DNA of 42,114 nt, from IMG/VR virus record IMGVR_UViG_2561511241_000009, positions 1 to 42,114 of that record; one strand, written 5' to 3'. This document shows positions 11,313 to 30,528 of the stretch, piece after piece. How positions within the stretch are numbered: position 1 is the stretch's first letter; every line of letters starts with the position of its first letter. The notes below the pieces were generated by a model. The model made no database searches. It worked only from the letters and a program-made list of their open reading frames with translations, and was not told the DNA's origin. This stretch comes from a virus. Its lineage: Duplodnaviria; Heunggongvirae; Uroviricota; Caudoviricetes. The translations under genes were made by a program, and so were the position numbers.

Positions 11313-13787
11313 TTATTGCGGAGTGACATCCTGAGGTCGCCACCAGTATGTCTGGTTAAACTCTTTCTTCGAACGTTGCTCCATTTTACGCAAATAGCCT
11401 GGTGAAAAATACTCCTGCATCTGATTAAAGATCATGTGATCGAGAGCCGCCTTCAAGTACCAGAGATTCGCACCAGGCATCAAACCTTTCCCAAGCTTAA
11501 CCAGATCACCACCAGTCTGCTCATTCTTCCCTTCCACAGCATTTAACGGTATGCCCTGAGCAATCTTCACTACGTCATCAACCAGACCAGCTACCGGGCC
11601 AAGCATCGACGCTAGTGCGCCGCTCCCGTACCTGGTGTGGTCAGAGAAAAGAAAATCACCATACAACCCTGCCCCACCACCTTTTAAAAATGCATTTATC
11701 CAGAATTTAACCATGTTGTCACCGGTCATTTCTTTTGGATTTCTCCCATTAATAAGATCAGTAATCTGCATGGAAAGAGCACCAAGCATGGTTGTGCTTG
11801 CTAAAAACGTTGCTATATATGCCGCACGCCCACCAGCAGACGGCATCCCCATAGCTCTATGCCAGTGACGCATAACTACCGAGATAGGGAACGATTTAAA
11901 CAGGAAAACACTTCTCGTTAATTCACCTTTCCATGTTCCACGCTGAAGACCAGACCCTACGAACATCCGTTCACGTGCGCCCGGTGTAATAACAGCCATA
12001 TCAACTTCTTCAGTTACGGCACCGAGCAGTTTACGCATTGCCTCAAATTTCACACGTTCAGGCTCACCAAGATGTTTAACTGCTGAATCAGGGATACGCA
12101 TAATGCTTTCCGGTGTCAGCATCGTATTATTACCGTTCCCCCAGTCCTCCTGTTGCGCCAGCTTCCATACGCTCCAGTCTGTGTCAGTAATCCCTTTGCT
12201 TTTCAGGATACGAAAATCATAGTCATCGAGGCTACGAAGGTCTGGTGTCCGTGACACTACTTCTCCCAGGCTTCCCATCATGGTTACGCCATAGGCGCGC
12301 TTGTGCGCATCTGACCATGCTGTAAGCCCACTGGCACGCATTACCGCCGTTGCCGCCCAACGAGACACTGACGGCCCCATATTATCCATCGCCCAGCGGT
12401 TAACGCTGCCAAGTAGAGATTCCATCGCCAGACCAGCGCGGCGCGCCCGCGCAAGTTCTGTACGGTTCGTTGGGTCCATAGCTTCAAGCTGGTTGCGGAA
12501 TAACTGGTTCATTGGAAGGTTGGTAACCTTCGCAGACAGATACATGGTTCCAAGATCAGAGAACGATGACAGCAACGCGGATCCGAGTCTGCTGGCAACC
12601 AGCCAGTTGCGGATATTGTCAGACCATCGCGCGATGTGCGGATTCGCTACAGGCTGTGTCTTTCCGGAAATAAAGTTGTACAGGTTCTCTGTTTTGTTCG
12701 CCAGCCGCTCGACTTTACCGGTTTTACTCGGGTTAGCTGTTGCCGTTTCTGCCTTAACCTGATCAAGAAGGGAGCGGAAAACATGATCGGGGTTTGGACC
12801 ATATGTTTCCACCAGTGCAATATCTTTACTGATACCTTCCAGGTGACCGACCATGATTTCCCATAGAGAGCGATCGCCATAAAGTTGCTGATATTGCAGA
12901 TAGGAATCTGCATCTTTGAAATGTATCTGTCGTGATGCATTACCACGGTTAGCACGTGCGCCGGAAATTCGCATTCCGGTATCAGTAAGCTTATTCAGCC
13001 CACCAGTAGCGATCGTGTTATAAGCCTCTCCAAGAAATGCAGACAACTCGGCATCGTTCATCAGTTGTCCATCGGCTCGGATATAATATTTGCGATCCAG
13101 CTTACCTATAACATCGCTAACCCACTTATCCTTTGATACCGCCCCAACCTTTTCCATAGAATGATGTTGAGGGATCCCCCAGTTTTCGAGATAGCCAATG
13201 TCCCCACCAGCATCATTAAACCGGCGGCGCAGTAGCTCTGTCACTTCTCTCCACGCCTTAGCACCTTTTCTTGCTTTAGCATTGCCAGTATTTTGCCCCC
13301 GCATTTCATATACCAGGTCACGTACGCCCGCTTCATCTTCAAACAGACCAAAAAAGCGAGGATCAACTGCTTCGAATGCCTCCTGCAATTGACTCAATGC
13401 ATAATCACGGGTGGCTTTTGTTCTGGATTCAACAGAGAGGAAATTCGATTTACCGTCTGCATTAAAAGCAATAGTACGGTTAAGAGCGCCAAGTTTCCCA
13501 TCAGCCCCTTGATAGCTATTGATAAATTTATCCAATCTCTGACGTGCGGCTATAGTGAGGGCCACACGACGTTTCTTTAATGCCGCTTCTCGCTGTAATT
13601 CTTCAGATGCCAATTGTGCTGCACGATATAGCCGCTCTGATTCGGAAAGTTGTCTCCACGACATCGGGTCATCACGAGCAATGGAGCGCATATTTCGATA
13701 AATGCGGTCTTCAATGTTCTGTATTTCTCGCGCCGTTAACGTGCGCTGCGCCGCCTGCTGGACCGCTTGTATACATTCCTGTCTCAT
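11313..13787 (-). CDS. large internal virion (core/ejection) protein, 824 aa
   Basis: One of three consecutive large structural-module genes between tail tubular genes and tailspike, as in T7-like/epsilon15-like podoviruses. Confidence 0.5.
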   Translation of the reverse strand: MRQECIQAVQQAAQRTLTAREIQNIEDRIYRNMRSIARDDPMSWRQLSESERLYRAAQLASEELQREAALKKRRVALTIAARQRLDKFINSYQGADGKLGALNRTIAFNADGKSNFLSVESRTKATRDYALSQLQEAFEAVDPRFFGLFEDEAGVRDLVYEMRGQNTGNAKARKGAKAWREVTELLRRRFNDAGGDIGYLENWGIPQHHSMEKVGAVSKDKWVSDVIGKLDRKYYIRADGQLMNDAELSAFLGEAYNTIATGGLNKLTDTGMRISGARANRGNASRQIHFKDADSYLQYQQLYGDRSLWEIMVGHLEGISKDIALVETYGPNPDHVFRSLLDQVKAETATANPSKTGKVERLANKTENLYNFISGKTQPVANPHIARWSDNIRNWLVASRLGSALLSSFSDLGTMYLSAKVTNLPMNQLFRNQLEAMDPTNRTELARARRAGLAMESLLGSVNRWAMDNMGPSVSRWAATAVMRASGLTAWSDAHKRAYGVTMMGSLGEVVSRTPDLRSLDDYDFRILKSKGITDTDWSVWKLAQQEDWGNGNNTMLTPESIMRIPDSAVKHLGEPERVKFEAMRKLLGAVTEEVDMAVITPGARERMFVGSGLQRGTWKGELTRSVFLFKSFPISVVMRHWHRAMGMPSAGGRAAYIATFLASTTMLGALSMQITDLINGRNPKEMTGDNMVKFWINAFLKGGGAGLYGDFLFSDHTRYGSGALASMLGPVAGLVDDVVKIAQGIPLNAVEGKNEQTGGDLVKLGKGLMPGANLWYLKAALDHMIFNQMQEYFSPGYLRKMEQRSKKEFNQTYWWRPQDVTPQ

Positions 13788-13792
13788 TTAAT

Positions 13793-15595
13793 TTAACCTC
13801 TCAAGAAACACGCCACAGCGACATCAAACAGGCTGGAATCCTGTATTGCCTGCTCACTTTCCCTGTTCGCTTCATCCAGTACTTCACGCGCGCTGCGCGA
13901 TTGTGGATTACCATCATCATCCAGCACGGTGATTATCATGTCCGGAGATTCAAGCAGCGAGTCTTCAGCTATACGCAGATCAATATCTCCTGCCGGATCT
14001 GCCATCATTTTTTGTTCTGTCTGTTGCAATATCTTACCGGGCTCAAAAGGAGCTACTTCGTCTGGCGTCCTGACCTCTGCTGTTTTATAGAATGAAACAG
14101 CCTGAGCATTAAGTTCACTTTCTGCCTGCTGTCGTCGTGCCAGTTCTGCTCGAGCTTCAAAAAACTGACCGCCAGGCTCATGCGGTGCCAACGCGTTACG
14201 GGAAAATTCCAGGCGCTCTTGTGCCTGCCGGATTCGTTGGTCAATATCGCGAAGTCTGACCTGTTTATCTGATCGAGCACGAGACAAAGCTTTACCGCTA
14301 CCGGTTGGCTCTTCTGCAAGAATTTGTGCGCGCTGTTCAGTGAGATTTTCAATAATTCGTTGGCTATTAGCGATTTCAGACTGGTAAACCTGTCTATCGC
14401 CACGCGGCAAAAGCTGCGCGGCCTGTTCTTCAAGCAACCGATTTTCTATAGCGCGCGCCGTTACTCCATCATCTACAGATGACAGAGCCTCATTAACTGC
14501 CTGAGACAGCAGACTCTTGCGCCCAAGAATTTCACTGAAAGATGCAGACTCAACAATGCTGGCAACGTCTACAGGTCTCCCCTCGCTAACATCAGACATA
14601 GCTTTTCTCAGAGCCTGAATGTGAGAATTGCGCGAAAGCACGTTGATCGGCACGCCTGGCGCAATATCAATTTCAGCATGATGAGCGGCATTCGCCGCCA
14701 GTGCAGCATCAACATCAACTGGTGAAAAATTTGGTGCGCTTGTAGACTCGCCGCGAGAGTTAATAAATCTGCCGACACCACCAAACGCCACCCCAAGAAC
14801 AGCATCAATAGCAATTGCCTGTCGATCCAACACATCATACTGGTTAGCCATTTCGCTATAGCCACCATCACGAAGCGTTTTTGCAGTAAGCCCACGCTGT
14901 GCCATACCGAACGCAATATTTGTACCTGCGGCATAGGCAATATCTGGCGTTGCACGTACTGCTGTTGCTGCGGCGCGTCGCACTGAACTTTCACCCGTCC
15001 GCGCAAGCTGAGCCGCCACACCTTCCGCCAGCGCACCGCCAGCACGTAACCCGAGGCTCATTGGGATCAGTGTTCCGGCACCAGCAGTAATACCCTGCAC
15101 TAATCCTGCTTCCTGCGCCGTCCTGAAATCAACACCCTGTGCTGTCAGCCGTTCAAACTCAGAAAAACCCTGTAGCGAAGTTACCGCCGCTGCACCTCCG
15201 ACCGGACCACCGAGCGTTGTACCGACAACAGCCTGCCCGCCCATATCGAACAACCCATAAAGAACCTGCCCGGCGGTTCCGGTTGTCGCGGCATCAGGCG
15301 TCAGCCGCTTAACCTGCTGCTCTGCTAGTTTTCTCTGCTCGGCAATGTATGAAACTGAAGTGTCATTGAGCGAGGTGTTTTCGTTAACAAACTGAGCAAT
15401 CGGGGATACGATTTTATCCATCCCTGCCCATAGCAACTGGTCTGGCTTTGCCACCAGCCCGGAGTACAAACCAGACAATGCCGCTCCTACAGCATTGTCG
15501 AAAAAACCAACATCGCTGTTAAAGCCAGCTGGATTTGATGCTGCTTCGTCAAGCTGCTGATTCTGGTTTACTGGATTAAGGCCAAAGTAACTCAT
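13793..15595 (-). CDS. internal virion (core/ejection) protein, 600 aa
   Basis: Ala/Gly-rich, coiled-coil segments; start overlaps upstream gene stop. Confidence 0.5.
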   Translation of the reverse strand: MSYFGLNPVNQNQQLDEAASNPAGFNSDVGFFDNAVGAALSGLYSGLVAKPDQLLWAGMDKIVSPIAQFVNENTSLNDTSVSYIAEQRKLAEQQVKRLTPDAATTGTAGQVLYGLFDMGGQAVVGTTLGGPVGGAAAVTSLQGFSEFERLTAQGVDFRTAQEAGLVQGITAGAGTLIPMSLGLRAGGALAEGVAAQLARTGESSVRRAAATAVRATPDIAYAAGTNIAFGMAQRGLTAKTLRDGGYSEMANQYDVLDRQAIAIDAVLGVAFGGVGRFINSRGESTSAPNFSPVDVDAALAANAAHHAEIDIAPGVPINVLSRNSHIQALRKAMSDVSEGRPVDVASIVESASFSEILGRKSLLSQAVNEALSSVDDGVTARAIENRLLEEQAAQLLPRGDRQVYQSEIANSQRIIENLTEQRAQILAEEPTGSGKALSRARSDKQVRLRDIDQRIRQAQERLEFSRNALAPHEPGGQFFEARAELARRQQAESELNAQAVSFYKTAEVRTPDEVAPFEPGKILQQTEQKMMADPAGDIDLRIAEDSLLESPDMIITVLDDDGNPQSRSAREVLDEANRESEQAIQDSSLFDVAVACFLRG

Positions 15596-18105
15596 TGCGG
15601 AATATCTCCGGAGAATCTCTGACGCTTCTGTGTCAGATTAAGAACAACGGGAGAACCATCATCTTTCAGTAGATAACCAGTACCAAGTTTCACCAGGTAC
15701 TGACTATCGCCGTAACTTTGCAAACCATACTGACCAGGCGGTGTTTTTATCCCGGAGCCGACAACTTGTTCATTCCAAGCCTGATTAACCTGCTTATCGA
15801 ATTGCTCTGCAGACATTCCCCACGGCAAAAGGACATTCCCCATTCCGTTATAGTCATGCACGCCACCTGTAGCTACGTTAACAGCCTGTTTCCAGACATC
15901 ATTGTCAATTTCGCCTGATACCACGCCTTTTTTCGCCATCACACCAGCGTAATAATCCTTTGCGATCTCGTATGCCATTGATGCTCCCTGAGCGTCACCA
16001 GCAAATGCATCCTTCACCATGTCAGAAAACTCAAAGCGAAGATCAGCATCTTTAGGCATCGGAATACCTTTCGCGTCATCAGTACCTTTACGAGCCGCCG
16101 CGCCAGCAAGAATTGTCTGCGCAGCGGTTTCAGGAGACACGGAAACATCCGGATTAAACCAGTTTTTTTCTGCCAAAATACCACCTGGCTTATCCATCAG
16201 TATCCCGGCAACGGCAGCAGATGGAGCGTTGGCACTGATCTGCTGTAGTGCTGACATATACACCTGCCCACCACCAGTGCTCTGCCTGATGGTATCGAGA
16301 TATGCTGCCTGTTGGGAAACGGGCGCATCACGAAAGAAAACACCGATCTGATTGGCCTCGTCTTTGGAAAAGAACGTCAGTGGAGTGCCATATGACTTAG
16401 CAAGGTCACTGACCTGAGCAGCTCGCAAGGCAACGCTCTGTCCAAAGTTATCCTTATTGCTCATGTCGATAGGCTTTGCCTGTCCGGCGGCAAGAGAGAA
16501 CTGTACAGGATCAGCCTGTCGCTGCTTTATCACCTGACTTGCAGCCGACACAACGTTGTCATAAAGAGCGGCTCGTGCCGCATAACCCTCCCCTGTCTCA
16601 CCAGTATCCGGGCGTAATTGCTCAACATATGCTGTAATGCTGCTTGTCGGCATGTTGCGGAAAGAGCCTATATACTGTCCGGCGATTTGCGTATTTCTGA
16701 ACTCGGTATATCGCAGGTTTCCTTCTCTGACTCCATAAGCTGCAATAAAATCAGCCTCACCAGGTGGGTTAGGAAATTCAACGCCACGCATATACGCAGC
16801 TGTCGCATCGCGAACCTGGCTGTCAATCATCGTTTTATATTCAGCCTGCTGCTGCCGACGCAGTTGATCCGCCTGTCGCATAAAACTTGCCTGCGCCTCA
16901 GGAGATGCCGCATCGAATGCTGCATTACCGGTATAGCGTTTGGTGTTGGTTGGAATTGTTGATAAACCAAGTGCTGCACTGACACCAGCAGTTAACTGCT
17001 GATCACTGTATGGCTGGCTACCGTTCTCATGATGGATAATGGCTGCACAAAGCGCCTTCAGGGTATCAGGATTAGATGCATCGAGAGGCTCATCAGCAGA
17101 AACGCCAAGTTGTTCGCACACTGCTTTGATATACGACATAGTGTCATTTTTATCAGTAGGCGGTGCCCAGCGATTAATTATCTCGCTGACGGTATCAATA
17201 CCCTGCCTCTGATACGACATCAGGTTCCGCCCTAATGCACGAATCCCGTGTTCAGGTGTTTCGAATTTCGCAAATCGACCATCATCACCGGTCTGGCCTA
17301 CCCACGGATTAGTTTTGCTGTATTCGAGATTTCCTGGGTTATTGTTGCGTATGCCACGGGCACGCTCGGAAGAGTCACTATCTGCTACAGCACGGCGAGC
17401 TCCAGCTGCAGTATCACTTAACTCGCCATTACTTTGGATGAATGCGGTCGCATTGTTTGCCGACCACTGGGACAATGCGGCATCAGCAACCTTCTCTTTA
17501 AACTCGATTTTCTTGGCCTGTATTTGCTCGTCGCTCCAGCCATGCGCAATGCCGTAATCCTCAATTTGCTGGAAAGTTTGCTTATTAGCCAATATGTATG
17601 CGGCGTTGTCGCCATACAATGCTGCGGCATTTTTACCATTGTTCAGCAGCGTAGCCTGAAACTGGCCTTCTTCGTAGGCATTTATTTGCCCTATCTCGTG
17701 CCGCCCGGCCTGCGTAGTGAACTGAATGCGCTGCTGCTGCGCCTGCTGCATGAAAGCATTACGAGCCTGTTCATCCGGCAGCGACATAGCCAGTTGTTCG
17801 ACCTGAGCATCAAACTGCTGCGTATACTCATGGCCTTTTCCAATAGCATTTTTCCCTTTCAGGTTAAGCAATCCTGTTTCAGGATTATTCAGCAGATCAC
17901 TGCTTATCTGACTGAGGTTAAGAGATGCCTCCTGAGCCAGAGCGATATTGGCACGCTGTTTTGCCTGACCAAAAACATCAATAGCCTCTGCCCCTGCCCG
18001 AACAAAAGCATCACCAATACCTGGCTGAGAAAACGTCTGCAAGCCTGCTGACTGAACTCCACGGCTCTCAACCTGACGTCCGGATACTGTTGGTACGACT
18101 GGCAT
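15592..18105 (-). CDS. internal virion protein with possible cell-wall-degrading segment
   Basis: Central RGIRNNNPGNLEY...FAKFETPEHGIRALGRNL segment resembles virion muralytic domains; GGAGG RBS before Met at 18105 (track ORF extends to 18180). Confidence 0.45.
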   Translation of the reverse strand: MPVVPTVSGRQVESRGVQSAGLQTFSQPGIGDAFVRAGAEAIDVFGQAKQRANIALAQEASLNLSQISSDLLNNPETGLLNLKGKNAIGKGHEYTQQFDAQVEQLAMSLPDEQARNAFMQQAQQQRIQFTTQAGRHEIGQINAYEEGQFQATLLNNGKNAAALYGDNAAYILANKQTFQQIEDYGIAHGWSDEQIQAKKIEFKEKVADAALSQWSANNATAFIQSNGELSDTAAGARRAVADSDSSERARGIRNNNPGNLEYSKTNPWVGQTGDDGRFAKFETPEHGIRALGRNLMSYQRQGIDTVSEIINRWAPPTDKNDTMSYIKAVCEQLGVSADEPLDASNPDTLKALCAAIIHHENGSQPYSDQQLTAGVSAALGLSTIPTNTKRYTGNAAFDAASPEAQASFMRQADQLRRQQQAEYKTMIDSQVRDATAAYMRGVEFPNPPGEADFIAAYGVREGNLRYTEFRNTQIAGQYIGSFRNMPTSSITAYVEQLRPDTGETGEGYAARAALYDNVVSAASQVIKQRQADPVQFSLAAGQAKPIDMSNKDNFGQSVALRAAQVSDLAKSYGTPLTFFSKDEANQIGVFFRDAPVSQQAAYLDTIRQSTGGGQVYMSALQQISANAPSAAVAGILMDKPGGILAEKNWFNPDVSVSPETAAQTILAGAAARKGTDDAKGIPMPKDADLRFEFSDMVKDAFAGDAQGASMAYEIAKDYYAGVMAKKGVVSGEIDNDVWKQAVNVATGGVHDYNGMGNVLLPWGMSAEQFDKQVNQAWNEQVVGSGIKTPPGQYGLQSYGDSQYLVKLGTGYLLKDDGSPVVLNLTQKRQRFSGDIPQ

Positions 18106-18650
18106 TATAATCCTCCGGGTAATCTGGTTCCTGCTGCTGCCCCGATTGGCGCAGGAGTGCTTTGAGTAAACGGACTCCACGTCCCACCAAACATCTGGTA
18201 CGCACCGTATGCCTTCAGAGGCGCGGTGAGCAATGTTGTTGCTGCTCCCACATTCCCCTGTTTACGGGCTGAACTGGCTTCTGCTTTATAGTTGGCAGCC
18301 TGAACCTGATAACCGTAAGCCTCGCGTTGCGCGTTATTCACCGTCGTCAGCGAATCAAGAGCGCCAAACTGGGCAGTGTCGCCAAATATATCCAGCGCGT
18401 TACCTGTAGATAAATCAGCGCCGGTAGCCCCCATTGTCGCCGCCTGTGTACCAAGCCGCTGTCGGGTCTCTCTGCGCCGTTGCTCAGCTTCAGCGTTACC
18501 TCTGTTTATTGCATCATTTGCCTGAGCTGTGGCTATATCTGCGTTCGCTTCTGCAACCTTCGAGACATACTTTCCCTGTTGGTACTGGGTGTATGCCTGA
18601 ATGCCACTCATGGCGAGCATTGCGCCACCAGCAATAACCGGATCGCACAT
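18105..18650 (-). CDS. virion structural protein (hypothetical, 181 aa)
   Basis: Position in structural operon; Ala/Gln-rich. Confidence 0.4.
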   Translation of the reverse strand: MCDPVIAGGAMLAMSGIQAYTQYQQGKYVSKVAEANADIATAQANDAINRGNAEAEQRRRETRQRLGTQAATMGATGADLSTGNALDIFGDTAQFGALDSLTTVNNAQREAYGYQVQAANYKAEASSARKQGNVGAATTLLTAPLKAYGAYQMFGGTWSPFTQSTPAPIGAAAGTRLPGGL

Positions 18651-22563: not shown

Positions 22564-22908
22564 TTACACGCCCAGTTCTTTACGCTTATCTGCGATCTTC
22601 TCGCGGAGCGTTTCGGCTTTGGCGTTATGGTGTGGCTTCTCGTTAAAGAGCAATTCGTACTCTTCACGGAGCTTATCCAGTTCATCATCATCTGACACAT
22701 CGTTGATGATTTTGGTGCTGGTTGCTGCCATTGACACCTTTCCTGCAACTTTTGCTTTTGCCTGTCTGGCTGCATCGTTAACAGGTTCCAGTGCGCTACC
22801 AGGCTCACCTTCGTATTCGATTTCTGCCCCCTCCGGCCACAGAGTGTTATGGATATGAGAGAGGCGCAGAACGCGGTATCTTGGTTTCTCACCTGACATC
22901 GATATCAC
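22564..22908 (-). CDS. hypothetical virion protein (114 aa)
   Basis: ORF in structural operon; followed by GGGGC-cgaa-GCCCC hairpin. Confidence 0.4.
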   Translation of the reverse strand: MISMSGEKPRYRVLRLSHIHNTLWPEGAEIEYEGEPGSALEPVNDAARQAKAKVAGKVSMAATSTKIINDVSDDDELDKLREEYELLFNEKPHHNAKAETLREKIADKRKELGV

Positions 22909-22909
22909 C

Positions 22910-23347
22910 TTAACCAGTTACTTTTGAGCGGATCGGATACGGCGTATTGGCATCAACATCAAGACTGATACCAGCAGTGAATTCGCCAGCCGTTAGTGGG
23001 CCGGTTGCGACGGAGTAGTTAACACGCAGATATCGCTGAACACCGGCAGGCACCTTTGCAGAAACAACTCGTTTACCTGCTGTCAGGGCGGTCTTTGCCA
23101 GTGCGCCACTATCATAAATAGTGGTCCATGAGCTGTTATTCTCACTCGTCTGCAACTGGATGTTTACAGTTGCATTACCGCTTGCCGCGGCGGCTGTGTT
23201 AACCAGCGCCCAAAACTCAAGCGGGTAACCCACGCCGATATCACGACGTTTTCCGTCAATTGGACCGAGATCGATTACGTCAGTAGAAGCCGCGGTATTC
23301 GTAACCGCCTGAGCTTCGGAGAACATCAACAGTTTGTCGGTGATCAT
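22910..23347 (-). CDS. hypothetical capsid-associated protein (145 aa)
   Basis: Immediately downstream of major capsid gene; Ala/Thr/Gly-rich. Confidence 0.4.
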   Translation of the reverse strand: MITDKLLMFSEAQAVTNTAASTDVIDLGPIDGKRRDIGVGYPLEFWALVNTAAAASGNATVNIQLQTSENNSSWTTIYDSGALAKTALTAGKRVVSAKVPAGVQRYLRVNYSVATGPLTAGEFTAGISLDVDANTPYPIRSKVTG

Positions 23348-23398
23348 CTTCTTTCTCCATTAGTGGGTCTGTTACGACCCACAGGTTAATAACAGGCG

Positions 23399-24391
23399 TT
23401 ACACCACGCGGGCTTCTGTTTCCAGAAGCGCATCAGTTTCACGGATTGGTACACCACGGAATGAAGTCCACCACTCGCCTTCTGTCTCTTTTACGCTGAT
23501 CGCCAGAGATGTTTTCTCCAGAGATTGCAGATCAAGAGCCTGGCCTACAGTGCGGTTCATGTAGAACACCGGGCGACCCATGCCACGATTTGGAATGCGA
23601 TGCAGTGCTTTAACCATCAACTTCGCAATATTTGCGGCAGAGGAAGGTTCTGAAAGATTGCTGACATCGATGTTTGCAATGCGAACAACATAACGCCAGT
23701 CACGCAGAGCAAGTCCGTTATCCCATTTGTAATGGGTACGGTAGCCTTCGTACTTGCCGCCATTAACATCTTCCAGTGTCACCTGGCCTTTATCTTCCAT
23801 CTGAATGCCAGCCTTCTGCCCTTTCGGGAAGATGCCATGCACGGTGTTTTCGCCCCACACCACTAACCAGATGGAGGTGTTATCTGTACCCGTGCCACCA
23901 GCATCAATGATGTTCTGAGCATTACCCGCAGACAGGCTGGAATAGCGGGAGGACAGTCCCATAAACTGCTGAGGGTTAACGCTGGAATCACCATAAAATA
24001 GCGTCTGCGCCATCTGCTGATTCATCGCTTCAATAAATGCGCGGTCTTCAGACAGGCGGAATTCGGCGGTATTGCCGTTCAGATCAGCCAGTGACTTATC
24101 GACTTCAGCATAGGTTTCCAGCATGCCAACGGAATCGGTTACCTGCACTGTGGTTGATTTGCTTGGCTGTACGCCATAGTTCAGCAAACGCCAGGTAGCT
24201 GAAGGTAAACCAGAACGAATGGTGGTTCGGTGTCCGGTAGGAAGGTTCCCTTCGACAAAAAGCATATCCTGAAGGATCGGGTTAGTTTGACCGAGAAGCT
24301 CGATAATCTTATCGACTTTCCCGTTTGGATCGACGCGCTTACCCCAGTCAGCCAGCGTTAGCGCAGTTAAGCCTTTAACAGCCATTGTCAT
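23399..24391 (-). CDS. major capsid protein (330 aa)
   Basis: Size and position after scaffold gene; no family motif verified. Confidence 0.7.
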   Translation of the reverse strand: MTMAVKGLTALTLADWGKRVDPNGKVDKIIELLGQTNPILQDMLFVEGNLPTGHRTTIRSGLPSATWRLLNYGVQPSKSTTVQVTDSVGMLETYAEVDKSLADLNGNTAEFRLSEDRAFIEAMNQQMAQTLFYGDSSVNPQQFMGLSSRYSSLSAGNAQNIIDAGGTGTDNTSIWLVVWGENTVHGIFPKGQKAGIQMEDKGQVTLEDVNGGKYEGYRTHYKWDNGLALRDWRYVVRIANIDVSNLSEPSSAANIAKLMVKALHRIPNRGMGRPVFYMNRTVGQALDLQSLEKTSLAISVKETEGEWWTSFRGVPIRETDALLETEARVV

Positions 24392-24399
24392 TTCCTCTC

Positions 24400-25101
24400 T
24401 TATTTGCCATAGAGCACTTCGGCCGCACTACGCTGGCCTTCATTACCACCGGTGACCATGCCATCTTCAGACATCGCCTTTCCGATTTTCACGAACGTTT
24501 TGACCAGATCAGGGTGATTACCCAGCCCGGTGGTGTTCAGATATTCTTTGAGTTCAGGTGTCCCGAACTGGTCAAGCGCACGCTGTGCGGCGCTAAGGTT
24601 AGAAATCAACTTGTCGCCACCGATTTCTTTGTCAGCTTTTACATCAGCAGCCCACTGCTCGGTTGTTTTCTGCCAGGCTTCTGCCTGGCGCTGCTGAACA
24701 CCTGCCAGAATCTTCGGATAAGCATCAACCAGCTTTTGCGCTTGCTCGTTGGTCAGGTTTAGTTCTCGCGCCACCGGCTCGAATTCCTTCAACGCTTCTG
24801 TATCCAGCTCTACGCCTTCGGCAGCCTGAAACTCGTACTTCTCCGGCGCACCATCCGGTTTATCGCCGTCCTTTTTTTCACCCTGCTTATCGCTTTCAGA
24901 CTTTTTGTCATCAGCAGGTTTATCGCCATCAGCAACAGGTTGCGGCTTATCACCTTCTTGTTGTGATGGATCACCAACTGGAGCATGGTTATCACCTGCA
25001 GGCGCTGATGGTTCTGACGCAGCCGGAGCTGCTCCACCATCGACTGGTTGCTCATTGCAAAGACGGCGATACAGCAAACGCTCAAATAAATTCATGATCA
25101 C
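24400..25101 (-). CDS. scaffolding protein
   Basis: Low-complexity acidic/Pro/Ala-rich N-half, helical C-half; between portal and capsid genes. Confidence 0.6.
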   Translation of the reverse strand: MIMNLFERLLYRRLCNEQPVDGGAAPAASEPSAPAGDNHAPVGDPSQQEGDKPQPVADGDKPADDKKSESDKQGEKKDGDKPDGAPEKYEFQAAEGVELDTEALKEFEPVARELNLTNEQAQKLVDAYPKILAGVQQRQAEAWQKTTEQWAADVKADKEIGGDKLISNLSAAQRALDQFGTPELKEYLNTTGLGNHPDLVKTFVKIGKAMSEDGMVTGGNEGQRSAAEVLYGK

Positions 25102-25394
25102 TCCTGTTCACTGGCCTCTTTGGCCATCTTCAAATACTGTTCAGGGCAATGCGCCATAACGCGCTGAAACAGTTCCAGCGCCAGATTGCGTTGCCCCTCA
25201 TTAAATGCCATTGCCATAGCATCCATCGGAGAGATAGCGGAAAACACACGGCCTTTCTCCAGCACAGACCAGACAACGCGACGCCCCTGTTCACTGCTCA
25301 TGACAAAGCGAATGTCATCAATTTCACGCTGTGCCATGTCACGTTGCTTACGGGCGTTTTCTTCTTTCAGTTGATCGTCTTCGTAATCTGTCAT
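25098..25394 (-). CDS. hypothetical head-assembly protein (98 aa)
   Basis: Overlapping start/stop with portal and scaffold genes. Confidence 0.45.
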   Translation of the reverse strand: MTDYEDDQLKEENARKQRDMAQREIDDIRFVMSSEQGRRVVWSVLEKGRVFSAISPMDAMAMAFNEGQRNLALELFQRVMAHCPEQYLKMAKEASEQE

Positions 25395-27070
25395 TGTGAT
25401 TGCCCACCCTGACCACTAACTGCATTCGCCATAGCTGACAAAACACTCGGATCCGAAGTTTTAGCTTCGCTTAGCGTCTTGGCACCCTGTGCCGCCGCCA
25501 TCCCCATGGCCATCATTTGTTGCTGCTGTTGTTGCTGTGCCCGTTGCTGGCGAGCCTGCTCAACCTGTTCCTGCGGAACAATGACGGTTGGAGACACTCC
25601 GGACATATCAGCGAATGCATCGATCGCCTGATCAACGTTGAGTTTGTCGAGAGCTTCTGGTTTCGCTTGCGCAAGTTGACCAATGAAGTTAACCGTGGAC
25701 GCCAGACTGGACAGGCCGATAGACTTCTGCGCCTGAGCCATGACGGAAATGTATTCGACCTTCAGGGGCATGCCTTCCATCGCGTCAGGCGGTGGCGGCA
25801 ACATGTTTTTACGCACCATCATCGAGAAAGCGCGGTCAATGAGAGGATTAAGACATTCGTCGTTCAGACGCTCCAGAACCGGCCCCAACATCAGAAGTTT
25901 TTCTTCTTTCATTTCGATCACCGCTTCAACAGGCATCGAGCGGGTATTGATGTTCTGCAACATCATGAACAGATCGACAAAGTAGGCGCTGTTAATGATT
26001 TGACGAGTGTCCTGAATGTCTGCCACCAAATCTGCTGTACTGGGGTTAACCAGATAAGCAGGCCTGAAACCATCCTGACCAGTAATCTGATCGATATACG
26101 TGATGTCGCCAGGAAGAAGGGAGGCACGCTGATTCTTGAGGGAAATCGGAGCAACCATCGGCGGATTGGTGGCTTTATCAATCAACTGCGACTTGCGCTT
26201 CTGGAGAAGCTGCAATGCCTTAACAGGTCCAAGCGCCAGCATGCCCGGGCATGATGATCCATAAACATCTTCGCCGTTAACTTCCCAGCGCGGAGCCATA
26301 ATTGGAAACTCATCGAATCCGGACTCACGCAACAACTTGTCGTTATCGCCACCAACCTCGTAATAAACCGATTTGAATGGCTTGTTCTTGCTATCCAGCT
26401 TCGATGTATCGCGGTCAATGTTCGGGTAAACCGAATGCATCACTTCAATCCACTTCTCGTAGGTGCCGCTTTCCCACATGCTTTTTACGGATTCGCTGAC
26501 GTTATTTAGCCCGAACTCCTGAACAAGCTGACGAACAGTCATAGAGAACTTGCGAAAACAGGTGTCCACACTGCCACGAGGTGAGTTAGCCAGGTAGTAA
26601 CTGCCTATCGTGAATGGCATTGTGCGAATGATGTCCTCGTCATCCTCCAGCACTGCCATTGCACCAGTGCTGTATGTGCCGAGGCTTCCGTATAACTGCG
26701 GCAGCGACTGATAGAGATTCGACTTATTGAACATATCGTTCATGCGGTTCTGCACCGCCTCAAGCCACAACTTAACAGGGCCATAATCCATCATTTCAGG
26801 ATCTGGCGTAGCCAGGCGAAACCACGGACGCGCGGGGCTTGTGATGCCTGACATCATGCCGCTGGCGAGAGTGCGCGCCGCCATAGTCCCGGTCGAATCA
26901 ATAATGCGTGTATTGCGTCGATCGTTACGGTTGACCTCAGAAGTCAGAAAGCGGGAACCACGCGGGTTGATGTAATCACTCAACTCGCGCCAGTGCGGCT
27001 CGAACGACTGACGCTCGCTTTCAAGTTGTGCGAACTGTTTGTTCAATCGCTCTTTAGTTGTTTCCGCCAT
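25391..27070 (-). CDS. portal (head-tail connector) protein, 559 aa
   Basis: Size and position between terminase and scaffold; GGAG RBS; Q-rich C-terminal tail. Confidence 0.7.
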   Translation of the reverse strand: MAETTKERLNKQFAQLESERQSFEPHWRELSDYINPRGSRFLTSEVNRNDRRNTRIIDSTGTMAARTLASGMMSGITSPARPWFRLATPDPEMMDYGPVKLWLEAVQNRMNDMFNKSNLYQSLPQLYGSLGTYSTGAMAVLEDDEDIIRTMPFTIGSYYLANSPRGSVDTCFRKFSMTVRQLVQEFGLNNVSESVKSMWESGTYEKWIEVMHSVYPNIDRDTSKLDSKNKPFKSVYYEVGGDNDKLLRESGFDEFPIMAPRWEVNGEDVYGSSCPGMLALGPVKALQLLQKRKSQLIDKATNPPMVAPISLKNQRASLLPGDITYIDQITGQDGFRPAYLVNPSTADLVADIQDTRQIINSAYFVDLFMMLQNINTRSMPVEAVIEMKEEKLLMLGPVLERLNDECLNPLIDRAFSMMVRKNMLPPPPDAMEGMPLKVEYISVMAQAQKSIGLSSLASTVNFIGQLAQAKPEALDKLNVDQAIDAFADMSGVSPTVIVPQEQVEQARQQRAQQQQQQQMMAMGMAAAQGAKTLSEAKTSDPSVLSAMANAVSGQGGQSQ

Positions 27071-27084
27071 TTCAATGACTCCGG

Positions 27085-27291
27085 TTACTGACCAAGCAGC
27101 GTTTTACCGCTGGTATTAGCGGTTGATGTGTCGCCCTGAGAACCGGTAAGCAGCGTAGAACTACGACCAGCAGCAGCGCGACGGCGACGAGTTTCTTCGT
27201 CGCGGGCATCAACAACGGCGGCATCCTGCTCCTGTGGTGCTGCCTGAACTTCTGGTGTTGCAGGCACTGATGGTGAGCTACCCATGCACAT
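27085..27291 (-). CDS. hypothetical small disordered protein (68 aa)
   Basis: Has the same ACGGAGTCATTGA-ATG RBS context as the portal gene. Confidence 0.4.
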   Translation of the reverse strand: MCMGSSPSVPATPEVQAAPQEQDAAVVDARDEETRRRRAAAGRSSTLLTGSQGDTSTANTSGKTLLGQ

Positions 27292-27381
27292 ATCAATGAC
27301 TCCGTACGCAATTAAATTATTACCAATTTAACCACATATGATTTATTTATCGTAGGTAGTTGACATTTAACGCACGAATTA

Positions 27382-27396
27382 TTACCTTTCAGGTAA
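27382..27396. promoter_or_regulatory. operator-like palindrome TTACCtttcaGGTAA overlapping a TTGACA promoter
   Basis: TTGACA at 27360-27365; perfect palindrome 17 bp downstream where a -10 would lie. Confidence 0.55.
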
Positions 27397-27718
27397 GCAT
27401 AGAGTGCATTCCTGTTATTAACCTGACTGGCTTGTCGTTAAATTGAACAGGTGGAGTGAGCTTTTATTTTGAGCAGTACGGCGTATGGCACATGCGCCGA
27501 TAGCGGTCTGGATACGTTTAAGGGGCACCCTCCCTTGCTCGGGCAAACGAACCAGGTAGCCGGAATGTGCAAGTCGAGCGGTTTTATGCCGCGCACGGGG
27601 ATTCACCATCCCGGCGATTCGGTGTGACGCCTCGGAAGAGACGAGGGTACAACGATGAGAGCATTTATGGAGCCGCGACAAAGTGTGGTGCCTTAACAGG
27701 CTAAGTGCTCTCAGCGTT

Positions 27719-27795
27719 GTGGCATTAGCTCAGTCGGACAGAGCAACCGCCTTCTAAGCGGTTGGTCGCAGGTTCGAATCCTGCATGCCACGCCA
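27719..27795 (+). tRNA. tRNA-Arg (anticodon UCU)
   Basis: Manual fold: acceptor GTGGCAT/ATGCCAC, D-stem GCTC/GAGC, anticodon stem ACCGC/GCGGT with loop CTTCTAA, T-arm GCAGG-TTCGAAT-CCTGC, discriminator G, encoded CCA. Confidence 0.9.
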
Positions 27796-27838
27796 GAATC
27801 ACGCCTAAGGACCGTGATGCCAGAAGTTCCAGGGGCTT

Positions 27839-27880
27839 GGCGGTGATGGTTTCCCTTGAAGGACTATCACCGCCCTTTTT
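27839..27880 (+). terminator. rho-independent terminator after tRNA
   Basis: GGCGGTGAT...ATCACCGCC 9-bp stem then CTTTTT. Confidence 0.6.
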
Positions 27881-27958
27881 ACAGCAGGACGCCATTGCGA
27901 TGACTTCATGCTGTAAACCCGTACAGCCACGGAAGGCATAACTCATTGCTTCCAGTTC

Positions 27959-27982
27959 GCCCGGTTCGCCGGGCATTTTTTA
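27959..27982 (+). terminator. second hairpin with T-tract, abutting the RBS of the 27998 gene
   Basis: GCCCGG-ttcg-CCGGGC then ATTTTTT. Confidence 0.55.
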
Positions 27983-27997
27983 AGGTGAGATTAGACT

Positions 27998-28369
27998 ATG
28001 AGTGACAAAGACATTGAATCTGAAATTCAGGCTAAAGGTTTAGCCGCGCCGCGCGTTACGCCAGACCATATCGAGAGCATTATTGCTCAGGAGGCATATT
28101 TCACAGCAGAAGATGGTGCCTTTGGCGTAGCCATAAAAGCGAAACATACTGGCGGAGAGGTAAACTACCAGCCGCACGAATCACTTTCTCTGCTGACGTT
28201 CTGCGTCCTGGTGCTGCGCAACGGCTTCACCGTCACCGGAGAGAGCGCCTGTGCAAGCCCGGAAAACTTTGATGCAGAAATTGGTCGGAAGATTGCCCGA
28301 CAGAATGCTGTAAACAAAATCTGGATGCTTGAAGGTTACTTGCTGAAGCAGAAGTTAAGCGAGCAATAA
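27998..28369 (+). CDS. hypothetical phage protein (possibly N4 Gp49 / Sf6 gp66-like family)
   Basis: 123-aa ORF on the opposite strand to its neighbours; family assignment from memory only. Confidence 0.45.
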   Translation: MSDKDIESEIQAKGLAAPRVTPDHIESIIAQEAYFTAEDGAFGVAIKAKHTGGEVNYQPHESLSLLTFCVLVLRNGFTVTGESACASPENFDAEIGRKIARQNAVNKIWMLEGYLLKQKLSEQ

Positions 28370-28459
28370 CACCGTGACATATCACAAACAGCCAGCCTAT
28401 GAGCTGGCTTTGTTTTATCCTCATCAGAGGATATCAACGACATTATCCCCTCAAGCGGA

Positions 28460-29935
28460 TTAAGCATAGGGATCGTAATCTGTGATGGCCTTGCCTTGCT
28501 GGTTCTGCTGCCCGGGAAGTCGCAGGCGCTTTGACACCGGGAAAGCAAACGTCAGCAGTAGCGCATCGCCTTTACCAGGCGAACGCCCAAGCCGCTCCTT
28601 GATATCTTCCTTCGGTTCGATAACGATTTTACCGTCCACTCGAACTTTGTACTCTGCCGCAGACAGGTCGTCCGCTGTTTCCTGGTCATCCAGCATGCCG
28701 CCCAGCCTCAGCCATGTCTTGCATGAGTTGAACATCTCCCCACGCTTGTTGAGCATCTGCGGGTCAGTAGACGCGCCACCGAACGGAACAAGTTGCCATG
28801 TACGACCCCATCCGTCACCGATTGATTTCAGACCGGTTCCGTAACCGAAGTCGATGAACACTGCGTCAGCCTGGTACTGGTCTTCAAAGTCAGCGATACG
28901 CTTCGCCATTATCAGATCGTCAGTGGTCTTGTTGCCAGTCCACAGCACCTTACTGTGCAGCCCCTGCCGCAGGTATATCACAGCGTCATCAACGCCGGAG
29001 TATGCCGGGTCAACGCCGATTATCACCGGAGCGTGTGCCACCTGCGCAGCAGTTACCACCCGTTTCATTGCCTCGTCAGTAAGACCGGTAGGGATAAACT
29101 GCAATTCAGATGCATCAGGAAATATGCCGCGCACACGGATTTTAACGAAGTCGCTGTCTTCCCCGTAGTCATCAACCCATTTCTGTAATTGCTGCTTGTT
29201 AGTACCTTCCACCGTCCGGCTGTCAATCTGTGCAGTTTTCCAGCGGTGTTTATATTTGCGGAAACATTCGCGGAAACGCCCGGTGTTACGCGTCGGGTTC
29301 CCGAACGCCACCCAGATGATTTCGGTGTCTTCGTCCGTAAGCGCACCCTCGGCAACTTCCCACACCAGATCCGCAATGTTCGACGCTTCATCAAACACCA
29401 CGATGATGCGTTTGCGCTCGTTGTGTAGTCCCGCGAACGCCTCAGTGTTGTGCTCAGACCAGGGGATTGCGTCAGCGCGCCACCGCTTGTCGTGCCCAGG
29501 GTCATTGCTGTACATCGCGGTAGCGGTACAGGTAAACCAGTCTTTCGTGATAGCAAGATTTGACCACTTGATAATTTCCGGCCAGGTCTTCGTTCGTAGC
29601 TGGTTGTCGGTGTTGGCGGTCACCACCACCTTGCAGTCCTCGCAGGTCGACATGCCCCAGTTAATCAGCATTGAGATGAAAGCTGACTTGCCGATGCCGT
29701 GGCCGGATGCGCGGGCCAGCATCAACGGCTGGTGACGCGTCGCCGGGTTCTGCAGGTGATCGCGTATCTCGCGGAATGCGTCTGCCTGCCACTTACGCGG
29801 ACCGGTGGCGTGCGCCAGCTCTGTGCCTTCCTCGCCCCACGGAAACGCATACAGCGCATAGCCCAGCGGGTCATACGTGAACGAGGCGATATCCTCGACG
29901 AGTTGCTCTTCCGGCGACATGGCTGCGGCTGTCAT
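28460..29935 (-). CDS. terminase large subunit
   Basis: Walker A-like ASGHGIGKS; C-terminal nuclease-like region; 491 aa; ATGA overlap with small subunit. Confidence 0.85.
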   Translation of the reverse strand: MTAAAMSPEEQLVEDIASFTYDPLGYALYAFPWGEEGTELAHATGPRKWQADAFREIRDHLQNPATRHQPLMLARASGHGIGKSAFISMLINWGMSTCEDCKVVVTANTDNQLRTKTWPEIIKWSNLAITKDWFTCTATAMYSNDPGHDKRWRADAIPWSEHNTEAFAGLHNERKRIIVVFDEASNIADLVWEVAEGALTDEDTEIIWVAFGNPTRNTGRFRECFRKYKHRWKTAQIDSRTVEGTNKQQLQKWVDDYGEDSDFVKIRVRGIFPDASELQFIPTGLTDEAMKRVVTAAQVAHAPVIIGVDPAYSGVDDAVIYLRQGLHSKVLWTGNKTTDDLIMAKRIADFEDQYQADAVFIDFGYGTGLKSIGDGWGRTWQLVPFGGASTDPQMLNKRGEMFNSCKTWLRLGGMLDDQETADDLSAAEYKVRVDGKIVIEPKEDIKERLGRSPGKGDALLLTFAFPVSKRLRLPGQQNQQGKAITDYDPYA

Positions 29936-30528
29936 TCTTCACCACCAGCCTGCTCTATGACGCGGCGCCGGGCGGCGGCCATGCGGTCGGCGATGGTGAC
30001 CGTGCCGGAAACCTCCAGGCGCTCTTTGAACGCGTTAACGTCGACGTGCTTACCAATCAGTTCGAGGTTCTTCATCTTGTCAGGCCATTTAATTTTTTTG
30101 AGGATTGTCTCTATCGAATCCTCGTTCATGTTCATGATGGTCGATGACAGATCAAAGCCACTAAGCGTAGTGCGCCAGATTTTCGGCCACTCGCGGATTG
30201 GCTTAAGACTCCCATCGTCGTTGAGGATATCAATCACGTCCATCTGGTCGATCTCCACCAGGCGCATGAGAACGTAATCAGCACTGACGCGCATTCGTTT
30301 GTTGCGCTCCTCCATCAGCTCGGCAATCCGTTTTTGAATGCGTTCATCGCGCATCATGACACTGGCTTTAACTGCCGCTGTATTTGGGGAGAATCCTGCG
30401 TTAATCGCTGCCTGAGTCTGGTTTTCAGGCGTTTTGATGTATGACTGGCAATAAGCCTCCTGCATTGCTGTTAGTGGCTTAAATTGCGTTGATTTGCGTT
30501 TATAGGTTTTAGGTTCAGCAGGCATCAT
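29932..30528 (-). CDS. terminase small subunit
   Basis: Directly upstream of and overlapping large subunit; GGTGG RBS before Met at 30528 (track ORF extends to 30606). Confidence 0.65.
   Translation of the reverse strand: MMPAEPKTYKRKSTQFKPLTAMQEAYCQSYIKTPENQTQAAINAGFSPNTAAVKASVMMRDERIQKRIAELMEERNKRMRVSADYVLMRLVEIDQMDVIDILNDDGSLKPIREWPKIWRTTLSGFDLSSTIMNMNEDSIETILKKIKWPDKMKNLELIGKHVDVNAFKERLEVSGTVTIADRMAAARRRVIEQAGGEE

Follow-up and report, generated by a model that had tools for sequence, protein, structure and literature searches.

The stretch of DNA analyzed here (the window; 42,114 bp of the IMG/VR record IMGVR_UViG_2561511241_000009) contains a phage genome whose virion and packaging genes lie between positions 11313 and 30528. 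Immediately upstream of this late block, as the last gene of the early leftward operon and thus in the Q position, an unannotated gene (30647-30985, minus strand) encodes a protein of 112 amino acids (aa) in which a ribbon-helix-helix (RHH) domain is combined with a zinc-finger-like cluster of Cys residues. We are highly confident that the late block is that of an integrated phiV10/TL-2011b-like Uetakevirus, an epsilon15-like temperate podovirus residing beside the yfgI gene. The initial annotation of the locus had described a podovirus-type virion module joined to temperate replication, immunity and integration functions. Gene order, protein families and the lack of a phage RNA polymerase bear out this description, but the arrangement is not new; it is the standard Uetakevirus plan.

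When the interval 11313-30528 was compared by megablast with 50,697 phage records, phiV10 matched 100% of the query at 97.2% identity, and nine further records, including the O157 typing phages 9 and 10, vB_EcoP_ZX5, phiv142-3, PAS61, HEMP4 and the Enterobacter phage Tyrion, covered at least 80% of it; the Salmonella phage epsilon15 is related at about 77% nucleotide identity. Sixty-five Synechococcus phage records are also found among the matches to the structural region, in the identity band between 60 and 80%. The arms of the window correspond to phiV10, TL-2011b and phiv142-3 in a mosaic pattern (89-97% identity), and co-linearity with the RefSeq record of phiV10 (genus Uetakevirus) extends to the level of single genes; a whole-genome comparison with epsilon15/phiV10-like phages had been proposed as a check. 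The two proteins by which a Uetakevirus can be recognized are both present, namely a major capsid protein of the gp7 type (330 aa; 23399-24391, minus strand; PF20911, epsilon15 GP7, E = 1.8e-148) and a capsid staple of the gp10 type (22190-22519, minus strand; phrog_825), the gene of which is annotated in RefSeq, on identical DNA, as 'gp10: capsid staple protein'. The tail genes were detected in 535 of 5,426 complete E. coli genomes, and 390 IMG/VR stretches encode a relative of the 112-aa regulator, the single-protein query returning near-identical E. coli prophages only. The window phage is of a common, named and already published type, and its genome plan is the standard one of the epsilon15/phiV10 group.

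The virion proteins, all of which are encoded on the minus strand, were assessed by Pfam, PHROG and PDB-profile searches and by pairwise BLASTP comparisons. The small (29932-30528) and large (28460-29935; 491 aa) terminase genes, terS and terL, open the block. The portal unit starts with a gene for a 68-aa protein (27085-27291), followed by that of the 559-aa portal protein (25391-27070; PF12236, Head-tail_con, E = 1.9e-186) and by a block of head genes (22190-25394) in which a 98-aa protein and two small proteins accompany those already named. A 233-aa protein (24400-25101) occupies the scaffold position. Its designation as a scaffold is plausible from that position, whereas databases list it as a 'protease' (phrog_458) and searches of Pfam and the PDB gave no match; its N-terminal half is acidic, proline-rich and of low complexity. 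The segment 19114-22193 encodes an 823-aa nozzle in the position of T7 gp12 and a 202-aa adaptor (connector) in that of T7 gp11. There is no Pfam family for either protein, and the profile and structure search that had been suggested for them leads to PDB 8ck1, the cryo-electron microscopy structure of the tail of the marine podovirus Carin-1, with the nozzle matching 8ck1_A ('Tail Nozzle', E = 1e-218) and the adaptor matching 8ck1_E ('Connector Protein', E = 3e-26). The epsilon15 record, in turn, carries an HHpred note tying gp11 to the T7 tubular protein A.

Two small internal virion proteins (18105-19114) come next, a 181-aa member of the T7 gp14 family (phrog_418; PF24072, T7_gp14, E = 2.6e-7, above the curated cutoff) and a 154-aa protein that is weakly gp13-like (phrog_308; PF11090, E = 0.088). 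They precede three large internal, or ejection, core proteins (11313-18105) of 824 aa (epsilon15 gp17-like), 600 aa (gp16-like) and about 837 aa (gp15-like), which fall into phrog_684, 1145 and 992/1044, correspond to phiV10 p18-p20, and the last of which bears a lytic transglycosylase region. The structural transcription unit ends with a 137-aa open reading frame (ORF; 10890-11303, minus strand) that starts, lipoprotein-like, with MKELLLLSVFLISACS and replaces phiV10 p21; it has no family match, there is no phiV10 homology over 10888-11312, and it is probably a moron. The 675-aa tailspike gene (6360-8387, minus strand; PHROG tail fibre/spike families) lies outside the interval 11313-30528 in which a tail fibre with a T7 gp17-like N-domain had been reported. 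For this domain, the match to PF03906 is partial and below threshold (E = 0.0068; 16.5 bits against a cutoff of 25.2; profile positions 123-153 only), and BLASTP with T7 gp17 found no match. Over its residues 1-156, the tailspike shares homology with D1, the domain by which the Carin-1 tailspike is anchored to the tail (Dpo31/8ck1, E = 7.5e-25).

The minus-strand structural operon with its portal of about 560 aa, capsid of about 330 aa, tubular proteins A and B of about 200 and 820 aa and three core proteins is therefore confirmed by Pfam, PHROG and 8ck1 matches, and by profile and structure comparison its virion proteins belong to families of podoviruses and not to those of siphoviruses or myoviruses, the outcome that was to refute the initial annotation. 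Homology of the adaptor, the nozzle and the tailspike anchor to the solved Carin-1 tail suggests a short-tailed virion for the window phage. With T7 gp9, gp11 and gp12, BLASTP gave E > 0.3 for all three pairs of counterparts; as judged from these comparisons, the resemblance to T7 is one of order, size and fold, plus two shared Pfam families, and not one of close kinship. No family match to a phage RNA polymerase was found by Pfam among all ORFs of the window longer than 250 aa, each of which has another assigned function, in agreement with what had been noted for this DNA. Because there is no phage RNA polymerase, the host enzyme must transcribe all phage genes.

How the late genes are switched on had appeared puzzling, as the early leftward operon seemed to run into the terminase genes across a gap of 40 bp. 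This puzzle arises because the terS reading frame had been over-extended. The mechanical ORF starts at a TTG codon at 30606 and leaves the apparent 40-bp gap, but alignment with the terS products of epsilon15 and Tyrion, both of which start with MPAEPK, points to the ATG codon at 30528/30525, and the true gap (30529-30646) measures 118 bp. The 26 extra codons are translated regulatory DNA, comprising a terminator and two operators. The terS annotation of phiV10 (locus L001, 41-715) is likewise drawn from the upstream TTG, with the same over-extension as window positions 29932-30606 (minus strand), and this deposited annotation is probably 26-27 codons too long.

The corrected gap contains three kinds of elements. 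A palindrome, GTGACATGTCAC (30639-30650; site A), overlaps the stop codon of the 112-aa gene. It is followed by an intrinsic terminator, tA (30580-30597, minus strand; GCCGCC-AACTAT-GGCGGC, then the T-run TTTATTTT), which ends the early leftward operon, is annotated in the phiV10 and epsilon15 records, and whose hairpin and T-run are conserved in phiV10, epsilon15, Tyrion and the Salmonella phage 66FD. Finally, two tandem operators of the phage repressor Rep (30527-30568, minus strand; 30545-30561 and 30527-30543) abut the terS ATG as 17-bp palindromes (ATTACCACAACGGTAAC and ATTACCACGGTGGTTAT), the first of which is overlapped by a conserved extended -10-like element, TGgTACTAT (30560-30568; TGnTA(C/T)TAT).

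The immunity region (35986-36955) consists of a cro-like gene (35986-36216, minus strand), operators within 36250-36316, and the rep gene (36371-36955, plus strand). The 194-aa Rep repressor is a full-length homolog of the Rep protein of phage SPC32H (5d50_A, E = 4e-42); it possesses helix-turn-helix (HTH) domains only, and no autocleavage/peptidase (S24) domain was found in it. Its predicted antagonist, the 85-aa antirepressor Ant (8583-8840, plus strand; 5d50_E, 'Anti-repressor protein', E = 7e-47), is encoded by the first gene of an opposite-strand operon. A near-consensus LexA (SOS) box, TACTGTATATTTATACAGTT (8544-8563, plus strand), with its CTGT-N8-ACAG core at 8546-8561, lies 22 bp 5' of the ant ATG and is conserved in the alignment of the tailspike-upstream regions. 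In SPC32H, according to the accounts of Kim et al. 2016 given in bioRxiv 10.1101/2021.09.07.459249 and in PMC9986798, a Rep tetramer binds palindromic DNA and an Ant tetramer splits it into dimers. By homology, the switch of the window phage is of this SPC32H-type Rep/Ant/LexA kind and not lambda-CI-like. Because a LexA box precedes the Ant homolog, the prophage should be SOS-inducible by antirepression, as shown for SPC32H, rather than by CI cleavage. The initial annotation had proposed a Cro/repressor immunity under lambdoid-style control, of which the cro-like gene and the repressor stand; a lambda-type CI is missing, however, and no Pfam, NCBIfam or PHROG match to N or Q antiterminators was found among the early-operon proteins scanned, a search that very small N-like proteins could escape.

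The Rep operators were mapped with the 17-bp pattern ATTACC-N5-GGTAAT, for which up to two mismatches were allowed. The window contains 16 matches (1.4 expected by chance), phiV10 15 (1.2 expected) and epsilon15 18 (0.9 expected), and none of 100 shuffles reached the observed count in any of these genomes. The matches are found at orthologous intergenic places in all three: in the cro-rep gap, at the early rightward promoter, between the P gene and the next early gene, 5' of the gene 10014-10595 of the antirepressor operon, and also 5' of each of the four late units (terS, portal cluster, tailspike and lysis cassette). Two operators, at 37012-37028 and 37074-37090, flank the early rightward promoter (TTGACA-17-AATTAT, 37047-37075, plus strand; segment 37012-37090). 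Operator pairs with a centre-to-centre distance of exactly 62 bp occur here and at 33890-33968, and the same spacing recurs in epsilon15 (32554/32616 and 35906/35968); such pairs are consistent with one Rep tetramer bridging two sites. The GenBank record of epsilon15 labels the operators before terS (the first of the two palindromes, at 12-27), gp3/portal and the tailspike as repressor sites, and direct repressor control of the late units is an existing prediction for the epsilon15-like family, not a new one.

When the regions 5' of the portal cluster, the tailspike and the lysis genes were aligned from the window, phiV10, epsilon15 and Tyrion, each of the three proved to contain a block that is near-invariant across the four phages while its flanks diverge. 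The block consists of a second palindrome, (A)ACCATAT(A/G)TGGTT, followed 7-12 nt later by a -10-like hexamer; no recognizable -35 element was found in any of the three. In the portal unit (27316-27397, minus strand), a Rep operator at 27381-27397 is followed by the box TCATATGTGGTT (27330-27343) and the hexamer AATAAT (about 27316-27321). The tailspike unit (8436-8507, minus strand) has its Rep operator at 8491-8507, the box CCATATATGGTT at 8452-8465 and TAGAAT at about 8436-8441, and the lysis unit (6163-6233, minus strand) an operator-like sequence at 6217-6233, the box AACCACATATGGTT at 6176-6189 and TATAAT at about 6163-6168. The terS gene lacks this box and has the extended -10-like element instead. 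The box is over-represented in the window (16 versus 3.5 expected) and is found as (A)ACCATATATGGTT beside Rep operators at 6176-6189, 8452-8465, 8831-8844, 27330-27343, 35897-35910 and about 36345-36356; these include early sites, among them one just 5' of rep. The box could be the site of a second regulator, for which the Cro-like protein is the obvious candidate. ATTACC-N5-GGTAAT and AACCATATATGGTT are candidate target sequences for Rep and Cro.

The 112-aa protein itself displays the beta-alpha-alpha arrangement of the RHH fold (CopG/Arc/MetJ). In its C-terminal half, C79 and C82 are invariant and C99 is near-invariant, while a fourth Cys is variable. TraR and YbiI are zinc-finger proteins of the DksA/TraR type that bind RNA polymerase, and the three best PDB matches of the family profile are to two TraR constructs and to YbiI, at marginal significance (E = 0.02-0.03). 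With fragments of these two proteins, hhalign reports a probability of 88%, and the C-x2-C-G-x2-(I/L)-P zinc-finger segment aligns with both. The relationship to TraR is best regarded as a distant and unproven similarity of marginal strength. Membership in the TraR family was rejected on account of the failure with Pfam PF01258 and the lack of both the DxxDxA motif and a second CxxC, and an identity as an Ogr/Delta-type late activator was rejected as well, there being no Pfam match in 57 family members. A BFVD fold search returned only a fragment of the same protein.

By chance, 42 kb of DNA should contain about 0.0025 perfect copies of the 12-mer GTGACATGTCAC; two are seen, at site A and at 10875-10886 (site C). 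Site C (10857-10886, minus strand) marks the end of the structural operon and is directly followed by an intrinsic terminator (10857-10874). The palindrome of site B (28374-28385, GTGACATATCAC; segment 28374-28409) has one mismatch. It lies where the terL and p03-like genes converge, beside a terminator that is bidirectional (28390-28409). The 12-mer is present at the same three positions in phiV10, epsilon15 and Tyrion, perfect throughout in the latter two and with one mismatch at site A in phiV10, and the DNA around these conserved 12-mers is only about 77-81% identical. At each site the order is the same: the stop of a gene, the palindrome and, 0-41 nt further on, an intrinsic terminator. 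The units closed in this manner are the early leftward operon, the p03-like moron (in its own direction) and the structural operon.

The linkage of gene and site extends well beyond the Uetakeviruses. In seven of seven lineages, GTGAC-NN-GTCAC is found where the reading frame of the 112-aa gene stops, or near that point; of 80 IMG/VR loci, nearly all have the site at the stop codon, and most have a second copy after terL. The site overlaps the stop codon in the Salmonella phage 66FD, in the Klebsiella phage ST11-OXA245phi3.2, in the Pantoea phage AH07 (GTGACCTGTCAC) and in a P2-like Yersinia phage (GTGACGCGTCAC). It follows the stop by 3 nt at gene 46 of N15 (GTGACTGGTCAC) and by 5 nt in the Pectobacterium myovirus ZF40, whose genome contains two more perfect copies elsewhere, and it lies 226 nt downstream of the stop in the Vibrio phage K308. 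This linkage indirectly supports GTGAC-NN-GTCAC as the cognate site of the 112-aa protein, which would bind it as a dimer. Apart from the site itself, the context of N15 gene 46 is uninformative about late control. In the Klebsiella phage (locus L085), a umuD-like gene (1795-2187) with a TTGACT promoter of its own and a perfect LexA box, TACTGTTTAAATATACAGTA, lies between the palindrome and terS.

Several other identities of the palindrome were considered, and the motif GTGACATGTCAC was not found in the searchable literature. A CRP/FNR or LexA site was ruled out by half-site spacing. The motif is absent from the immunity region, which eliminates a Rep operator, and it forms only a mini-hairpin of 4-5 bp that does not compete with the terminator, which eliminates an antiterminator structure at the RNA level. 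A role of the RHH protein as a classical upstream activator of the terS promoter was discarded too, because the spacing from site A to the promoter-like element is not constant (an 18-bp difference from the window to epsilon15) and no promoter lies downstream of site B or site C.

We propose the following route to late gene activation, to which we attach slightly less than an even chance of being correct as a whole. In the lysogen, Rep would occupy both early promoters and the operators before each late unit. DNA damage would lead to cleavage of LexA and expression of ant, and Ant would then disassemble the Rep tetramers and derepress the early and the late units directly; this step builds on the homology to a characterized system and on the operator map. 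The portal, tailspike and lysis units would use promoters without a -35 element; the CCATATATGG box of each has its centre near -27 and is the probable target of another factor of the phage, by which timing or level would be set. The 112-aa protein, bound to GTGAC-AT-GTCAC just before the terminators that close the early, p03 moron and structural units, would control transcription across these boundaries. We lean slightly towards a role in promoting read-through, for which three points speak: the synteny in the Q position in five of the seven lineages, the location of the site before tA and before the terminator of site C (tC), and a module that may bind RNA polymerase. Insulation comes close to it in probability, since repression is the usual activity of RHH proteins and since the way in which site B is oriented suits it.

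A number of observations weigh against this proposal and deserve to be stated together. The similarity to TraR is called into question by the Pfam model PF01258, which matches none of 57 family members, by Foldseek, which gives no TraR match for the 112-aa protein, and by the segment aligned with the N-terminal tip of TraR, which reads R-R-P-G-x-x-P-Y and lacks the DxxDxA motif required for the activity of TraR (PMC9239242). At site B, the palindrome is oriented so as to serve the terminator that closes the p03 unit on the opposite strand, an arrangement more in keeping with insulation than with antitermination. As already said, RHH proteins usually act as repressors. Given the similar boxes at early sites, the second box may be no element of late promoters but an operator of the Cro type. 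If the late units were derepressed jointly with the early ones, no true 'late' class of genes would be left. Transcript mapping for this phage group was not found in the searchable literature, and the promoters, the occupancy of the operators and the direction of the RHH effect are all read from the DNA sequence.

One competing explanation, which we consider unlikely, is a processive antitermination in the style of lambda Q, in which the 112-aa protein would be loaded onto RNA polymerase at site A and render it resistant to tA, to tC and to the terminator of site B (tB); a single long transcript, begun in the early operon or at a promoter of site A, would then pass through the terS, structural, tailspike and lysis genes, and the internal control blocks would be of minor importance. 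The genetic layout speaks for it, in that the gene is the last of the early operon and directly precedes terS in the Uetakeviruses, and in ZF40, the Yersinia P2-like phage and Vibrio K308 it likewise stands where early genes give way to late ones. A strong, conserved terminator follows the site, and site A is overlapped by a promoter-like GTGACA-17/18-(TAAATT/CATGAT). The late region is interspersed with terminators and with morons on the opposite strand, none of which would stop a processive complex, and the TraR-like module, which is a possible one, hints that the protein touches RNA polymerase directly. However, the RHH fold is no known Q fold, site A has a weak promoter-like element whose spacing to the terminator varies (22 nt in epsilon15 against 41 nt in the window), and sites B and C are without a promoter. 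In addition, operator, box and -10 element form conserved blocks before the portal, tailspike and lysis units, which speaks for separate starts of transcription, and in the Klebsiella relative the LexA-controlled umuD-like gene intervenes between site A and terS, where no terminator is evident.

In a second scenario, which we judge improbable as well, the RHH protein would act next to the terminators as an insulator or roadblock that strengthens termination, and the late genes would depend on the removal of Rep only. Early, moron and late units would be kept apart, and terL/terS and the ant operon would be shielded from antisense read-through. The usual role of RHH proteins and the orientation of site B, both noted above, are in keeping with such a function. 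In N15 and Pantoea AH07, however, the site lies directly before the next co-directional gene without a terminator; the terminators of the window are already strong hairpins with T-runs, and there is no clear reason why a roadblock protein should have conserved a zinc-finger module.

It is very improbable that the GTGACATGTCAC sites are bound by the host protein MatP of the Ter macrodomain, as mimics of its matS sites, instead of by a phage protein. The half-sites are the same as those of matS (GTGAC[AG]N[TC]GTCAC), and their spacing is one base shorter (12 versus 13 bp), which would rotate them by about 36 degrees relative to each other; no true 13-bp matS is present. The site travels together with the phage gene across hosts and phage types, and its central dinucleotide is variable. 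That prophages avoid matS (PMC3603311) also counts against MatP. Scarcely any more can be said for a simple read-through from the early leftward operon into terS; the two are co-oriented and 40 bp apart on the mechanical ORF call, but the real 118-bp gap contains a conserved GC-rich hairpin with a T-run followed by two repressor operators, and more terminators follow terL and the structural operon. A recent recombination between a T7-like lytic phage and a lambdoid prophage, as the T7-like gene order and the lambda-P and Ea22/NinX-type genes might suggest, is as good as refuted by the occurrence of the same arrangement in epsilon15, phiV10 (77-97% nucleotide identity) and about 10% of E. coli genomes, and by the non-significant BLASTP comparisons with T7 gp9, gp11, gp12 and gp17, which make the link to T7 an ancient one.

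The other modules of the prophage conform to the Uetakevirus plan. The lysis cassette (4311-6123, minus strand) is syntenic with phiV10 p27-p30 and encodes a membrane/holin-like protein (5710-6123), a holin (5415-5723), an endolysin (4796-5425) and an Rz-like spanin (4311-4799), with the Pfam domains Phage_holin_8, Phage_holin_3_7, Glyco_hydro_19 and DUF2514. In the replication module (34005-35619, minus strand), which had been taken for a lambda-like O/P pair, the helicase loader (34005-34799) is indeed a lambda P homolog (PF06992, E = 4e-53), whereas the initiator (34762-35619) has the Pfam domains HTH_36 and DnaT and not Phage_rep_O. Seven iterons resembling TCCCGTTTTTGGGATCATT (35193-35364; spacing 18-24 bp) lie within the initiator gene and presumably mark the origin. 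The recombination and integration arm (37249-42114) carries, on the plus strand, genes for a RecE-like exonuclease, RecT, an AlpA/Xis-like protein, a PerC-like protein and an MT-A70 methylase, and, on the minus strand, the P4-type integrase (40864-42114), whose Arm-DNA-bind_3 and Phage_integrase domains are present as had been proposed.

Between the terminase and portal units, an opposite-strand moron unit (27719-28369, plus strand) contains a tRNA-Arg(TCT) gene (27719-27795), two terminators and the p03-like gene (27998-28369). These two terminators (27839-27874 and 27959-27974) are strong, and the second ends 24 nt before the p03-like gene. Downstream of ant, an isrK-like RNA (8923-8999) and a C4 antisense RNA-like element (9024-9107), both on the plus strand and both Rfam matches at gathering level with 66 bits each, precede a Bro-N gene (9141-9866, plus strand; Pfam Bro-N); this arrangement between ant and Bro-N looks like an RNA-controlled second antirepressor module of the P1 immI/Gifsy-1 type. 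The mechanical ORF 8807-9109 is probably non-coding.

At its left side, the prophage meets the host chromosome in the junction zone 4198-4309, yfgI ending at 4107 and similarity to phiV10 starting at 4198. The host flank (1-4214/4309; pdeF-yfgG-yfgH-yfgI) is matched in 5,398 of 5,426 complete E. coli genomes. Its first gene, pdeF (yfgF, MASE1-EAL), is cut short by an IS1 copy (1-378) and is followed by yfgG, yfgH and yfgI. As this flank occupies positions 1 to about 4214 and the window ends exactly at the integrase start codon, the window represents an integrated prophage that has been cut out along gene boundaries. Window positions 677-4198 are matched by TL-2011b (JQ011317) as well, so that this record, deposited as a 'phage', seems to contain host chromosomal DNA.

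The feature that had been singled out in this DNA amounts to the genome plan of a prophage family that is already well known and very common. Members of the phiV10/epsilon15 family are used for the typing of O157 strains and in reporter-phage diagnostics, and capsid, tail and repressor structures have been solved. What is gained here is the correction of an over-extended terS annotation that has been propagated from the phiV10 record, and the assignment of the immunity system to the SPC32H Rep/Ant/LexA type. Late control also becomes more concrete, the candidate elements being four late units guarded by operators, the shared CCATATATGG box and the uncharacterized RHH/zinc-finger protein, whose co-inherited site is adjacent to terminators. 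It is conceivable, although we think it more apt to prove wrong than right, that the 112-aa protein represents an undescribed class of phage regulators, in which an RHH domain is combined with a TraR-like zinc finger that touches RNA polymerase and which is recruited by GTGAC-NN-GTCAC. It would then serve the epsilon15-like phages as the early-to-late switch, in the form of a site-loaded termination modifier analogous to Q but unrelated to it, and would be found in N15-, P2- and ZF40-like phages as well. If true, the passage from early to late expression would have been solved here in a new way, one that about 10% of E. coli genomes contain and that would bear on the engineering of phiV10-based reporter phages.

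Among the known systems, phiV10 (NC_007804), with its E. coli relatives TL-2011b, phiv142-3, vB_EcoP_ZX5 and PAS61, is closest to the window phage. It shares Rep, Ant, the tRNA-Arg, the terminators and both palindromic motifs at the same positions, and its recombination/integrase arm is 97% identical. The window differs in a mosaic tailspike and neighbouring region (89% identity in pieces, with TL-2011b closest), in the lack of the oac gene between tailspike and lysis genes, in the 137-aa lipoprotein-like gene that stands in place of p21, and in part of the early nin-like region. The type member epsilon15 (NC_004775) has the same genome plan, the identity of about 77% extending over the head and tail genes, with a terminator after gp49 and perfect GTGACATGTCAC copies at the three orthologous places; this Salmonella phage differs in its tailspike and serotype-conversion genes, has an extra methylase in the replication region, and has no annotated lambda-P homolog. 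The immunity system is like that of SPC32H (PDB 5d50, 5d4z) in its full-length Rep and Ant homologs and the LexA box before ant, from which operator occupancy and the action of Ant are predicted for the window; it differs in the additional, C4/IsrK-RNA-associated Bro-N module. With MatP, the 112-aa protein shares the RHH fold, but it lacks the four-helix bundle and the coiled coil of that protein, and neither hhalign (E = 0.15) nor BLASTP detected significant sequence similarity.

The order of the virion genes agrees with that of T7 from the portal through the scaffold position, capsid, adaptor, nozzle, gp13/gp14-like proteins and core proteins including a transglycosylase to the fibre or spike, and the two shared Pfam families are those of the gp8-type portal and the gp14-type internal protein. 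Unlike T7, the window phage is temperate, has a capsid of the epsilon15 gp7 family, and possesses neither a phage RNA polymerase nor T7 promoters. Lambda likewise has iterons inside its initiator gene, yet the window initiator is not a homolog of lambda O. The closest parallel to the early/late boundary is the Q/PR'/tR' arrangement of lambda, in which the last early gene is also followed by a DNA site, a promoter-like element, an intrinsic terminator and the first late gene. In contrast to Q, however, the 112-aa protein has an RHH fold and three candidate sites per genome, two of which are without a promoter, and the late units it borders have operator-controlled promoter-like blocks of their own.

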